Shown piece by piece: positions 22,249 through 59,026 of a stretch of DNA of 64,000 nucleotides. This stretch comes from Escherichia phage vB_EcoM_ESCO10. A program made the translations under genes and the position numbers. The notes beneath the pieces are model-generated. The model did not search any database and was not told the DNA's origin. It was given only the letters and a program-made list of their open reading frames with translations. The stretch lies in the sequence record OM386655.1. One strand, written 5' to 3'. Position 1 is the stretch's first letter. Each line of letters opens with the position of its first letter.

Positions 22249-22535
22249 TAGAACCTCATCTGAAATCCGTGTGATTTAACATTACCACCATAGACATCAG
22301 AGGTATTGACTTCACGTGCAGCGCTAGGGTCAATGTTAATATCATGGTTGAGCTTAGTGATTGCTAGGGTATCACGACCATTGACGGTACGGAATTCTAC
22401 AGGGCATACCACATCAGCATAGGCCTTAATAGATTCACGAGTAGGCTGTTTGTCAGCAGGAACACCTTTACCGGCTTTAGAGAAAACAACTTCACAGAAA
22501 TTTTTACGAGTATCGAAATAAGTGGTCATAAACAT
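22248..22535 (-). CDS. hypothetical protein (95 aa)
   Basis: ORF track; GAGGA SD. Confidence 0.45.
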   Translation of the reverse strand: MFMTTYFDTRKNFCEVVFSKAGKGVPADKQPTRESIKAYADVVCPVEFRTVNGRDTLAITKLNHDINIDPSAAREVNTSDVYGGNVKSHGFQMRF

Positions 22536-22549
22536 AATATTTTCCTCAA

Positions 22550-22565
22550 GGAGGCCGAAGCCTCC
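22550..22565 (-). promoter_or_regulatory. intercistronic RNA hairpin GGAGGC-UUCG-GCCUCC just upstream of SD
   Basis: perfect 6-bp stem with UUCG loop on minus transcript; identical copy at 60477-60492. Confidence 0.5.
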
Positions 22566-22573
22566 ATTTAAGA

Positions 22574-22939
22574 TTAGATATCAAACTCGTTAAGAACTAC
22601 ATCAAAGATTGCTTCAAGATGTTCAGGTTTAGCTCGGTTACTCAGAATATGACGAATCCAAGTTTTAACTAAGAGTTTACGATTATCACCGTTCCAACAA
22701 GGATGAGTGCCTAAATCGCGTTCACGGAAATCATCATCTAGAGCGATTTTAAAGTTGGAACCTTCCTTAGTTATTGAAAGAGTGATACCGTTTTCAAATC
22801 GCATATAAACGTAGTTAGGAGTCATGCACTGCTCGATTTCACATACTGAACCGTTTTCATGTTTCCACAGGCAAATAACTTCAGAAGAACCAGCGATACC
22901 GTTAGAAACATATTTACGTTCGAAGTTGATGTAGTTCAT
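22574..22939 (-). CDS. hypothetical protein (121 aa)
   Basis: ORF track. Confidence 0.45.
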   Translation of the reverse strand: MNYINFERKYVSNGIAGSSEVICLWKHENGSVCEIEQCMTPNYVYMRFENGITLSITKEGSNFKIALDDDFRERDLGTHPCWNGDNRKLLVKTWIRHILSNRAKPEHLEAIFDVVLNEFDI

Positions 22940-22970
22940 TTTATTATCCTTTGGTTTGATTTCGTATTAT

Positions 22971-23005
22971 TTGGTACAGGTCTATAATAACACAACCTGT
23001 ACCAA
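22971..23005. repeat. perfect 10-bp inverted repeat flanking the -10 element
   Basis: TTGGTACAGG ... 15 nt ... CCTGTACCAA. Confidence 0.7.
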
Positions 23006-23012
23006 AGTAAAA
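22984..23012 (-). promoter_or_regulatory. sigma70-like early promoter
   Basis: minus GTTTTAC, 17 nt, TATTAT. Confidence 0.4.
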
Positions 23013-23015
23013 CAT

Positions 23016-23348
23016 TTATTTCACAACATTCCAATTTTTCATATCAAGTTTACCAACTTTTTTCATCTGAGCAATCAGACGTTCGGCACGCTCACGAGCA
23101 GTAACATAATAGAATTCACCGATTTTGTTTTCTTCAATACGACCTGTAATTACAGTTTTCAGTTCATAAATCCAACCTGTAAAGAAGTTGTGAAGCTCGA
23201 TAGTAAAGGTGAAATCAGTACCCATACCTTCAGTGGTTTCAACTTCAATAATATCACCTTCAACCGCTGTCAGGACCCACATGGTTTCTTGATATTCACC
23301 GTTGAAACATTTAGCTTTAACAGATGCATTCAGGTTTACAGTTTTCAT
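23016..23348 (-). CDS. hypothetical protein (110 aa)
   Basis: ORF track; GGAGAATAAAATG SD. Confidence 0.5.
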   Translation of the reverse strand: MKTVNLNASVKAKCFNGEYQETMWVLTAVEGDIIEVETTEGMGTDFTFTIELHNFFTGWIYELKTVITGRIEENKIGEFYYVTARERAERLIAQMKKVGKLDMKNWNVVK

Positions 23349-23389
23349 TTTATTCTCCAGTTTGTTTTCGTATTTGTTGGTACAAGTCT

Positions 23390-23418
23390 ATAGTATCATG
23401 CCTACTGGAGAAGTAAAC
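23390..23418 (-). promoter_or_regulatory. sigma70-like early promoter
   Basis: minus GTTTAC, 17 nt, TACTAT; flanked by 8-bp inverted repeat 23354-23361/23404-23411. Confidence 0.5.
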
Positions 23419-23436
23419 ACTTTTTTAAAGATACAG

Positions 23437-23464
23437 AAACAAAAATGGGACTCCGAAGAGTCCC
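23437..23464 (-). terminator. intrinsic terminator
   Basis: GGGACUC-UUCG-GAGUCCC hairpin followed by UUUUUGUUU on minus strand. Confidence 0.6.
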
Positions 23465-23469
23465 ATAAC

Positions 23470-23631
23470 TTATGCCCGAGGCTTACCAAAACGAGAAGCA
23501 TCGTCGCGGATAACAGCACGAGCCCGACGCATAATCTTCTCAACTGTCTGATTGATACGTGAGTTAGACGCACGCTTGTAACCAGCGCGTTTAGAGGTTC
23601 CGTCAACTACTTTAACTTCTTTCTTAGCCAT
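23470..23631 (-). CDS. small basic protein (53 aa)
   Basis: hand-translated MAKKEVKVVDGTSKRAGYKRASNSRINQTVEKIMRRARAVIRDDASRFGKPRA; below track cutoff. Confidence 0.45.
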   Translation of the reverse strand: MAKKEVKVVDGTSKRAGYKRASNSRINQTVEKIMRRARAVIRDDASRFGKPRA

Positions 23632-23926
23632 TATAAAATCTCTTTAAATGAAAATGCAGGACTTATTGGCATTGCCTGCGCAAGCCCTCGAAGGGAACAT
23701 AGGTTTTGGATATTTAACGACAGGATAACCATAAACCTCGTCATCATACCAACCACGACTTAGACAGATAACCTTTTTCTGACGCGTGATAGTACAAAAT
23801 ACATTCAAGAGGTACACCGTAAAACTGTCGGGGTCTTAAAACTATAATGATTCGCAAATCATTAATAAGACAGTTCGACGGCTCCTCGATTTTCTAGCCG
23901 CACTAAGGTAGCGAATCACCTAAAAC

Positions 23927-24175
23927 TTATTTAAGGGTAATAACAAAATGACGTACTGCTTTACGAGCTGCCGAAGCCAAAGGCTTAGCATATTTCAGTT
24001 CATCTTTTGCTTCCAGTTCAGAAGCCAAAGCTGCCTGGACCGGGTTCAGATGTTTGAAATAACGCAGGATTTCCAGTGCTTCGGCTTCAACATCAATAGA
24101 TGCGCCATAGTTTTCGTGACCGTTGTTCCAAGCGTTGCGTTGCAGTTCAAGAGCGTGATTCAGATGTTTGTTCAT
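23927..24175 (-). CDS. rIII: rIII-like lysis-inhibition accessory protein (by synteny and size)
   Basis: 82-aa ORF immediately downstream of gene 31 as in T4. Confidence 0.5.
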   Translation of the reverse strand: MNKHLNHALELQRNAWNNGHENYGASIDVEAEALEILRYFKHLNPVQAALASELEAKDELKYAKPLASAARKAVRHFVITLK

Positions 24176-24318
24176 TTTAGTTTCTCAATTCGAGATAAAG
24201 ATTGGTGGACACGTTCTTCTGAATTTCACTTCCTTTCAGCAAGTCTCTCAGTTGTAGTCCACTGCTTAGAAGGTTGGTCATGTCCCTTTGGAGGTAGTTC
24301 TCCAACTCTTCATATTAT

Positions 24319-24326
24319 TATTTATA
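24319..24326 (-). promoter_or_regulatory. possible late promoter TATAAATA upstream of rIII
   Basis: exact match in gap between gene 31 stop and rIII, ~145 nt before rIII ATG. Confidence 0.3.
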
Positions 24327-24650
24327 TCACTTATAAAGACACGGAATAGCTTTATAATGACAAGTAACGAATTTCTGTTTAATTTCTTTAGGCTGTTTAA
24401 TACCTAATGCAACTAACGGATGAGGCACGTTAGCAATCTTACCGACAGGAAGTGGGGTCAAATCACCTACTTCACAAAAATCTTCAGGGACATCAGGTCC
24501 TACAGAATAAACTTCACAGAGTTCAGGGATTTCACCTTGATGAAGTTTGCCAATAACGATACCTGATGCAGTAGTTTCTTCATCACCAGCTTGTTTTGGT
24601 TCGGAAACGAGAATAATATATTCTCCGACCGCTTTAATAGGAAGTTCCAT
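24327..24650 (-). CDS. 31: co-chaperonin gp31 (GroES-like)
   Basis: close match to T4 gp31 (...[23 protein letters not shown]). Confidence 0.9.
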
Positions 24651-26935: not shown

Positions 26936-26965
26936 ACTATACCACAGTCCTACCATGGTGTAAAC
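26936..26965 (-). promoter_or_regulatory. sigma70-like early promoter with extended -10
   Basis: minus GTTTAC, 18 nt, TGgTATAGT; 9-bp inverted repeat 26927-26935/26946-26954 flanks -10. Confidence 0.45.
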
Positions 26966-30213: not shown

Positions 30214-30701
30214 TTGTTAATAATCTCAATGATGTCATCACGTGACAGGGAGTTAATAAGAACAGTTTTAGGATTTTCACACTGGATTTTGTATGTTTCA
30301 AACATCACACACAATTCTTCAGAGGTATGGTAAGGACTTGAAATACCGAGGCGATTAGTTTTATCACCTAGTGGGTCGCAAATCAAATAGAAAGTGATGC
30401 CAGCGATTTTAACATTAGGTTGACTGATATTAATGAACACGTGGGCATCATATTTGGAAAGGTTATTCTGAAGGAATTCGACCATTGCATTAACAGCTTC
30501 AGGCATGGCCTCACGTTTCTCTTCAGTATAACGAGTAGAATATTCTTTTTGTTTAATTTTCTTTTTAGCATTACGAGCCATCGTAACACGAAGGTCGGTG
30601 AGGTAACCAACTGCACGAGAACCTTTGAAAACTTGGATACCGTCAGTTGAGTCACCATAAGCCTTAACAATCATTTCGTTAGTGATAAGTTGCATGTTCA
30701 T
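30201..30701 (-). CDS. Alc-like protein (by synteny next to rnlA)
   Basis: 166-aa ORF in T4 alc position; sequence not independently recognised. Confidence 0.4.
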   Translation of the reverse strand: MNMQLITNEMIVKAYGDSTDGIQVFKGSRAVGYLTDLRVTMARNAKKKIKQKEYSTRYTEEKREAMPEAVNAMVEFLQNNLSKYDAHVFINISQPNVKIAGITFYLICDPLGDKTNRLGISSPYHTSEELCVMFETYKIQCENPKTVLINSLSRDDIIEIINKCLN

Positions 30702-30708
30702 TTTGTTT

Positions 30709-30753
30709 TCTCCTCATTAGTTGATAGGCTTATACTAACACATCATGAGGAGA
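30709..30753. repeat. 9-bp perfect inverted repeat; one arm is the alc SD/start region, the other lies inside the promoter spacer
   Basis: TCTCCTCAT ... 27 nt ... ATGAGGAGA. Confidence 0.7.
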
Positions 30754-30760
30754 TGTAAAC
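30732..30760 (-). promoter_or_regulatory. sigma70-like early promoter for alc-like gene
   Basis: minus GTTTAC, 17 nt, TAGTAT. Confidence 0.45.
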
Positions 30761-58854: not shown

Positions 58855-58971
58855 TCAGAAGAAATAGTTAAAATATACACGTACATGGTCAATCATAAAA
58901 GCGATTGGGAAAATGCATAATACCATAAACAGAATAAACATGTTCCAAATTGCTTTAAGTAACTTTTTCAT
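58855..58971 (-). CDS. small hydrophobic peptide (38 aa)
   Basis: hand-translated MKKLLKAIWNMFILFMVLCIFPIAFMIDHVRVYFNYFF; stop overlaps next SD. Confidence 0.3.
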   Translation of the reverse strand: MKKLLKAIWNMFILFMVLCIFPIAFMIDHVRVYFNYFF

Positions 58972-58997
58972 AATCATCTCCATTAGTTGATAGGTCT

Positions 58998-59026
58998 ATA
59001 GTATCATGTCTAATAGAGATGTAAAC
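58998..59026 (-). promoter_or_regulatory. sigma70-like early promoter
   Basis: minus GTTTAC, 17 nt, TACTAT. Confidence 0.5.

Follow-up and report, generated by a model that had tools for sequence, protein, structure and literature searches.

The closest described counterparts of the element analysed here are hairpins over ribosome-binding sites in phage T4. In the long RNAs of e, soc, 49 and I-TevI the ribosome-binding site is buried, and an internal promoter gives a short RNA that can be translated (PMC3014915). In these genes the promoter inside the structure belongs to the gp55-dependent late class (TATAAATA), and it is early RNA that is silenced. Promoter-early stem-loop (PeSL) cassettes, described by Arbiol et al. 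2010 and Comeau et al. 2014 (PMC2839356, PMC4122927), are repeated, exchangeable units that combine an AT-rich stretch, a strong sigma-70-like early promoter, a stem-loop or terminator, and an SD and start codon at the 3′ end. Their stem-loops are local hairpins read as terminators or attenuators and as recombination sites; a helix between promoter spacer and SD is not described there, and the words 'sequest...' and 'translation' are absent from the 2010 paper. The consensus for efficient cleavage by RegB/S1 is the 11-nt GGAG(R)A(Y)A(R)AA (GGAGAAUAAAA); single-stranded RNA is required and secondary structure inhibits the enzyme (Durand et al. 2006, PMC1702504).

Here we describe an inverted repeat ahead of the homologue of T4 gene 30.8 in a 64,000-nt stretch of DNA (the window, meaning the whole stretch analysed). 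As in e, soc, 49 and I-TevI, and also in Aeh1 mobE and T4 segB, the SD and/or AUG falls in a helix of the long transcript, at 30.8 a predicted one, and the promoter lies inside the structure, with its own transcript lacking the 5′ strand. In contrast to the e set, 30.8 has an internal promoter of the early sigma-70 type whose own spacer supplies the 5′ strand, and the RNA to be silenced would be any that reads through from a promoter upstream, which would reverse the temporal logic. No TATAAATA lies between the arms, where the promoter reads GTTTAC-17-TGnTACTAT, and the 30.8 repeat is therefore a variant of the published set and not a member of it. The 30.9–30.8 spacer has the same parts as a PeSL; its local stem-loop of the PeSL type is the UUCG hairpin at 23435-23466, which is separate from the long-range repeat. 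The exact RegB/S1 consensus occupies the SD position, as in known targets, but whereas those targets are defined as single-stranded, the 30.8 site is predicted to be so only in the promoter-initiated transcript. In the literature searched we found no description of SD sequestration by an early-promoter spacer, which older T4 papers (Liebig & Rueger 1989, Miller et al. 2003, Truncaite et al. 2006) may mention, and no report of transcript-specific protection from RegB; a T4 omics paper (PMC9697503) does not mention 30.8.

The 30.8 locus

The window is a segment of a T-even-type phage with its early genes on the minus strand, ~91-94% identical by megablast to phages VR5 and MX01 and ~77% identical to T4. 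The ORF list and comparison with T4 give the gene order cd, 31, rIII, 30.9, 30.8, 30.7 around the repeat (Table 1), and the window gp30.8 shares 79% identity with that of T4. On the mRNA strand, the 30.9 stop codon is followed by the terminator, the A-tract, the -35 element, TTCTCCAGT (23412-23404), the -10 element, a leader of ~35 nt, ACTGGAGAA (23361-23353), TAAA and the ATG. The terminator consists of a 9-bp stem with a UUCG loop (23445-23466) and the U-tract UUUUUGUUUC, has an annotated equivalent in phages Lutter, Mineola and G9062, and is separated from the 30.8 early promoter by 20 nt. The promoter is close to the T4 early consensus and comprises an A-tract (23426-23421), the -35 hexamer GTTTAC (23418-23413), a 17-nt spacer, TGn (23398-23396) and the -10 hexamer TACTAT (23395-23390). 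Its position is that of the T4 30.8 upstream region and of an annotated (predicted) promoter in phage Lutter, whose record places promoter features ahead of both the 30.8 and the 30.7 homologues. A generic sigma-70 scan omits this promoter because it scores against TTGACA, and a scan with the T4 early consensus was used in its place. Transcription probably starts near 23384-23383.

Table 1 Features around the 30.8 repeat in the window
Feature	Position	Strand	Basis or remark
Putative late-promoter motif TATAAATA upstream of rIII	24319..24326	-	Pattern search
gp30.9 homologue, 53 aa	23470..23631	-	ORF list; position as T4 30.9; gene upstream of 30.8, stop codon before terminator
Intrinsic terminator after 30.9	23435..23466	-	Terminator scan, perfect inverted repeat, MFE fold
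T4-type early promoter of 30.8	23390..23426	-	Sequence and scan with T4 early consensus
5′ (anti-SD) arm UUCUCCAGU, in promoter spacer	23404..23412	-	Weaker extension to 23417
3′ arm ACUGGAGAA with SD GGAG	23353..23361	-	Weaker extension to 23348
RegB/S1 site GGAGAAUAAAA	23348..23358	-	Exact match to 11-nt cleavage consensus; overlaps SD, ends at A of AUG
gp30.8 homologue, 110 aa, ATG 23348-23346	23016..23348	-	PF06019 Phage_30_8, E=1.9e-48
gp30.7 homologue	ORF after 30.8	-	PF06919

Phage Lutter has an annotated promoter feature at the position of the TATAAATA motif upstream of rIII. The count of this motif across the window is not above chance, so that its assignment as a late promoter follows from position only; it is a plausible source of late RNA that would run through rIII and 30.9 to the terminator and, with read-through, into 30.8. 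The gap between rIII and 30.9 (23632-23926; 295 nt, against ~245 nt in T4) has no assigned ORF, folds unremarkably (z=-1.07) and gave no Rfam match. Rfam likewise returned no family for 22500-24500, the only hits being two sub-threshold miRNA models on the 30.7 promoter hairpin (E about 0.8).

That hairpin (22970-23006, minus strand) is a perfect 12-bp stem, TTTGGTACAGGT/ACCTGTACCAAA, whose 13-nt loop holds the -10 of the early promoter of 30.7. It stands directly after the 30.8 stop codon, has no U-tract, dominates the predicted fold (-22.4 kcal/mol) and is kept in T4 as GGTACAGG/CCTGTACC; it appears to be a stem-loop of the PeSL type that overlaps a -10. Short-loop repeats also span the -10 at the minus-strand early promoters whose -35 elements start at 26965, 58243, 38240 and 29469 (GGTAGGACT/AGTCCTACC, 9 bp; CGAGAATC/GGTTCTCG; AGGCTAT/ATAGCCT; GGGAGC/GCTCC), and at many T4 early promoters, for example those of ipI, ipII and ipIII and the one at T4 57990.

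Pairing of the promoter spacer with the ribosome-binding site

An 8-bp inverted repeat had been described from the sequence, with one arm over the ribosome-binding site belonging to the ORF at 23016-23348 and the other beside the -35 of its promoter. We find this geometry as described. On the plus strand the arms are TCTCCAGT (23354-23361) and ACTGGAGA (23404-23411), separated by 42 nt; perfect pairing continues to 9 bp (23353-23361/23404-23412) and, at its longest, the repeat has 12 complementary positions out of 14 (23348-23361/23404-23417). Read on the minus strand, the 5′ arm UUCUCCAGU directly follows GTTTAC and thus sits between the -35 and -10 hexamers, and the 3′ arm ACUGGAGAA includes the SD GGAG (23358-23355), 7 nt before the ATG. 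Because the 5′ arm lies upstream of the -10, an RNA initiated at the 30.8 promoter cannot contain it.

In isolation an 8-bp repeat is unremarkable in this window, and its significance comes from its context. The window contains 150 perfect 8-bp inverted repeats whose loops measure 3-60 nt, compared with 85 +/- 15 in Markov-1 random sequence. When the 110 nt upstream of 51 candidate ribosome sites on the minus strand were searched for perfect complements of 8 bp or more, five sites had one (1.2 expected), and a 9-bp complement was present only at 30.8 and at the alc-like gene. None of 1,000 shuffles of the 30.8 spacer matched the native duplex with the SD region. Since raw repeats of 8 bp are common, one of the ~85 random examples expected in 64 kb could simply have fallen on the 30.8 ribosome site. 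The shuffling result speaks against such a coincidence, as do the recurrence of the pairing at orthologous loci with other arm sequences and its covariation across cassettes (below), and we regard chance as an extremely improbable explanation.

The repeat could also act in DNA, as a cruciform or single-strand hairpin with a part in promoter opening, replication or cassette recombination, or serve as a PeSL-like transcription attenuator. Several neighbouring early promoters do have short-loop hairpins spanning the -10, and PeSL stem-loops have been shown to terminate transcription (PMC2839356, PMC4122927). However, with its 42-nt loop and no U-tract the repeat is not an intrinsic terminator; it is followed by AAUAAAAUG, and the actual terminator is a different hairpin (23445-23466). 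A role in DNA is further at odds with the placement of one arm on the SD in every cassette examined, which would be meaningless for DNA, and with pairing that is kept only as G.U on the mRNA strand in WG01/VR5-type cassettes, at 59026 in the window and in S13; a formal count of G.U against A.C, meant to tell the RNA strand from DNA, came to 1 versus 1 and favours neither. We consider both the DNA-level role and attenuation very unlikely.

A second complementarity lies close by: the U-rich tail region of the terminator (23431-23443, UUUGUUUCUGUAU) is 85% complementary to AUACGAAAACAAA (23361-23373), beside the SD arm. This pairing and that of the arms would cross, in a pseudoknot-like or mutually exclusive manner; it may be due to chance because the sequences are AU-rich.

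Predicted folding of read-through and promoter-initiated RNA

The structure anticipated for the read-through RNA was recovered in folding calculations. For a read-through RNA of 86 nt, the predicted fold pairs the arms and has an MFE of -13 kcal/mol (z=-2.1), a value equalled or bettered by 4 of 200 shuffles. In the partition function, GGAG pairs with 23407-23410 with a probability of 1.0 in a 116-nt context and of about 0.5 in contexts of 191-391 nt that include the terminator or the whole 30.9 gene. Predicted masking with longer upstream context is only about 50-65%, and the drop arises because the anti-SD arm can instead be taken up by a local hairpin, GUGUUUAC/GUAGGCAU. The fold predicted for RNA that begins after the -10 has an unpaired SD, and in the partition function for an RNA starting near 23383 GGAG is 0.56-0.92 unpaired.

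We compared these predictions with established T4 hairpins using the unpaired probability of positions -13 to -6 in the short (promoter-initiated) and the long RNA. This value falls from 0.84 to 0.04-0.26 for the window 30.8 and from 0.90 to 0.14 for T4 30.8, compared with 0.51 to 0.25 for e and 0.50 to 0.01 for 49, both experimentally proven. On this measure, the effect size predicted at 30.8 equals or exceeds that at the proven T4 e and 49.

Specificity across early promoters

For each early promoter we calculated the duplex energy of the stretch from -35 to -10 with every ribosome site and permuted the pairs. Across 15 T4-type early promoters in the window, promoters paired better with their own sites (mean -7.48 kcal/mol) than permuted pairs did (-5.96 +/- 0.50; p=0.003). 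The own site ranked first at 59026 (-16.7 kcal/mol), at 30760 ahead of the alc-like gene (-15.5), at 23418 ahead of 30.8 (-14.7) and at 23012 (-9.2). A scan of three T4 loci covering early regions gave the same preference among 36 promoters (p=0.011), with seven own pairs at -12 kcal/mol or better, compared with 3.5% of non-cognate pairs; strong own pairs in T4 are those of motB.2, nrdC.8, regB, denV, e.8, alt.-2, 30.8, alc, mrh.2 and a promoter in the ndd region. In RB69 (1-50 kb), where 10 promoters had the strict pattern, the result was marginal (p of 0.055). Own-pair energies are bimodal, one subset pairing strongly and the rest not at all, and about a quarter of T4 early promoters show spacer–SD pairing. 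Anti-SD 4-mers are likewise enriched in early-promoter spacers, with 5 of 17 in the window (1.1 expected) and 10 of 43 in T4 (2.1 expected). The spacers of this promoter class are C/T-rich just past the -35 and C-rich at positions 3-6, and part of the complementarity comes free from this composition.

The original prediction had called the 30.8 repeat a second case after the alc-like gene. Both have 9 perfect bp and both rank first for their own ribosome site, but 30.8 is one member of a class: the window holds a third strong case (59026) and a weaker case (23012), and there are many in T4. At the alc-like gene (30701-30760, minus strand) the arms are TCTCCTCAT/ATGAGGAGA. T4 alc (136275-136336) has a different, longer pairing, AAGTCCCTCGTGTT.../...AACATGAGGACTT, at -18.2 kcal/mol; a second gene thus keeps the pairing through unrelated arm sequences. 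The cassette at 58971-59026 (minus strand) pairs its spacer ATCTCTATTAG with the ribosome site CTAATGGAGAT over 11 bp with one U.G, and precedes a hydrophobic ORF of 38-42 aa (58855-58983). At 30.7, a pairing of UUUUACUUUGGU with ACCAAAGGAUAA (-9.2 kcal/mol) was considered as a further switch and set aside, as the 12-bp local hairpin outcompetes it in the predicted fold.

Conservation at 30.8 orthologues

We gathered 30.8 upstream regions from GenBank phages and IMG/VR. The arms differ between lineages: TTCTCCAGT/ACTGGAGAA in the window; TCTCCGGT/ACTGGAGA, with a G.U pair, in the WG01 group (VR5-type cassette); TTCCTTTGT/ACAAAGGAG, with the arm beside the -10, in the T4 group; TCCAGTG/CACTGGA in VR25; a 14-bp helix on a GGGG-type SD in Cronobacter S13; and TTCTCC/GGAGAA in Kanagawavirus and Winklervirus. 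T4, S13 and VR25 differ in both arm sequence and spacer position. Pairing barely exceeds the 5-6-bp TCTCC/GGAGA core in Mosigvirus and Kanagawavirus. Four 30.8 lineages pair weakly or not at all: Mineola, KMB17 (Karamvirus), Serratia 4S and L045, which comes from IMG/VR.

A column-wise covariation test on an alignment of 16 of the 30.8 upstream regions was not significant (69.7% paired versus 68.5% when shuffled) because the arms sit in different registers. We replaced it by register-free comparisons of own and other duplexes and by an in-register test on cassettes that share TCTCC. With 13 representatives, one per clade, and only spacer set against only SD region, own pairs reached -8.75 compared with -6.57 +/- 0.59 (p=3e-4); spacer shuffles gave p<=0.001 for the window, T4, S13 and VR25. 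These comparisons indicate that at 30.8 the pairing is conserved and the arm sequence is not.

Two very divergent alleles of 30.8 exist (about 38% identity), beginning MKTVNLN... and MKINLNSYIK.... The second is found behind two cassettes, of VR5 type in L057 (IMG/VR 2974735671) and of a different type in L055 (VR25), a sign of recombination at the SD/start boundary or close to it. Each of these two cassettes ahead of the same allele has its own matching arms.

Covariation across cassettes

Like PeSLs, the 30.8 cassette is a repeated, exchangeable unit linked to gene replacement. In L057 the VR5 type stands ahead of the other 30.8 allele, and the same TTCTCCAGTAG...CTACTGGAGAA cassette precedes an unrelated gene, ORF040c, in RB69; we therefore searched IMG/VR for GTTTAC-N-TCTCC-N11-TANTAT, and found this type ahead of many genes. 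Thirty-five distinct cassettes were picked only by GTTTAC-N-TCTCC and a GGAGA SD, disregarding the flanks. The helix was extended by at least 3 bp in 25 of the 35, compared with 5.85 +/- 2.0 expected from permuted pairs (p<0.0005), and there were at least 7 different fully complementary 5-nt extension haplotypes. Matching extensions include TGTAG/CTACA, TCATG/CATGA, TCTAG/CTAGA, ATTAG/CTAAT, TCTGG/CCAGA, AGTAG/CTACT and GGTGG/CCACT. For 27 distinct arm pairs, the window's included, in-register covariation was 0.212 compared with 0.075 +/- 0.015 after shuffling (0 of 500 shuffles reached it) and 0.015-0.091 in slid registers, and changes had occurred on both sides in 8 of 14 pairs. The cassettes are related by descent, so their counts are not fully independent; the shuffle control ignores this relatedness and the slid control keeps it.

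Such matching could be a passive by-product of recombination, if a C/T-rich spacer and a purine-rich SD spread together and the co-inherited arms mimicked covariation around a functionless helix. In its favour, the spacer is C-rich at positions 3-6 after the -35, an unrelated RB69 gene lies behind the same cassette, cassette and gene are exchanged between phages, and PeSL-mediated shuffling is documented (PMC2839356, PMC4122927). Permutation among non-cognate pairs preserves the class composition, however, and own pairs still pair better. The various fully complementary extensions, the collapse of the signal in slid registers and the arms of T4, VR25 and S13, which are of unrelated sequence and at other spacer positions, also argue against a by-product, and we find this explanation improbable. 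The sequence comparisons point instead to the repeat as a selected RNA helix, an early-promoter variant of the T4 late-promoter hairpins that is carried on PeSL-like cassettes.

At most early promoters in the window a conserved, initially transcribed motif, AGNCCTATCAAC(TAC), lies 10-14 nt past the -10, and its 3′ part (CAACTAC) makes up the outer portion of the 3′ arm in many cassettes.

A proposed promoter-dependent switch and the RegB site

The original prediction was of a translational switch that depends on the promoter used. As a prediction this stands, in that the SD is paired in the modelled read-through RNA and open in the promoter-initiated RNA, and the pairing is conserved and covaries. 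The sequence comparisons show that the two arms are complementary, where they sit and that their pairing is conserved with compensating changes, and the folding calculations add a predicted structure; beyond this, the model supposes a start site, a read-through RNA and effects on translation and on RegB that would operate as follows. RNA entering from upstream, as early, middle or late transcripts that pass the 30.9 terminator, would carry the promoter spacer; its anti-SD UUCUCCAGU would pair with ACUGGAGAA and bury GGAG, which should block 30S binding. Because RegB needs GGAGAAUAAAA in single-stranded form, cleavage of the read-through RNA should be blocked too. Promoter-initiated RNA would begin about 20 nt downstream of the anti-SD arm with its ribosome site open, and would be translatable at once and then inactivated by RegB. 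The net effect would be to couple gp30.8 synthesis to its own early promoter, which is active only briefly, and the helix would be a built-in property of mobile cassettes made of a T4-type early promoter, 5′ UTR and SD. We judge it reasonably probable that the repeat encodes an RNA helix that licenses 30.8 translation by the start point of the transcript. Caution about its selective importance is due mainly to the strong terminator 20 nt upstream of the promoter, as a result of which read-through RNA may be scarce.

Since the helix masks the RegB site, sensitivity to RegB should depend on the transcript, and protection from RegB is a likely second consequence of the helix. Protection might even be the main object of selection: by hiding GGAGAAUAAAA in long transcripts, the helix would leave the long RNA uncut in the 30.9–30.8 intergenic region and keep 30.7 to the ligase gene 30 on intact mRNA, and destruction would be confined to the short early-promoter transcripts. 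The 11-mer hidden by the helix is identical to the RegB/S1 consensus, RegB requires single-stranded RNA (PMC1702504) and the predicted fold is identical to that under translational control. However, many helix cassettes have SDs that make poor RegB sites, and SD masking is therefore their common denominator. T4 denV has a helix and is stated to be a RegB non-substrate (PMC1702504); alc GAGGACUUU and nrdC.8 GGAGGAACAC read as poor sites, a reading taken only from their departure from the consensus. We consider it unlikely that the helix was selected mainly for RNA stability, and note that SD masking and RegB protection are not mutually exclusive. At the next gene, RegB is known to target the site of T4 30.7 (PMC9409239). 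The window 30.7 ribosome site (22939-22955, minus strand), GGAUAAUAAAA, is a GGAU-type RegB site with a perfect A-rich tail.

Taking control of 30.8 translation by transcript start point as the preferred reading, we tentatively propose, with rather less confidence, a general design rule. In roughly a quarter of T4-type early promoters, the spacer, when read through, would become the anti-SD strand for the first gene of the cassette, and translation and RegB sensitivity would be licensed only for the promoter's own RNA. The rule makes predictions that can be tested directly in T4, at 30.8, alc, regB, denV, nrdC.8 and motB.2. The 5′ arm can be altered from TCTCCAGT to a TCTGGAGT-type sequence while keeping the -35, the -10 and the spacer length. 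For synthetic circuits, it would offer a transferable design that restricts translation of an ORF to RNA from its own promoter.

T4 serves as the reference system for timed gene expression. According to the reviews consulted, how early protein synthesis is shut off is understood only in part, and these reviews leave open why RegB discriminates between transcript classes. If true, the design rule would help to explain the sharp shut-off of many early proteins, the sparing by RegB of middle and late RNAs with the same GGAG, and the insulation of tandem promoter cassettes from one another. With a spacer that silences its own gene on transcripts from elsewhere, a promoter would link translation compactly to where transcription initiates, and this silencing would travel with the cassette during gene shuffling.
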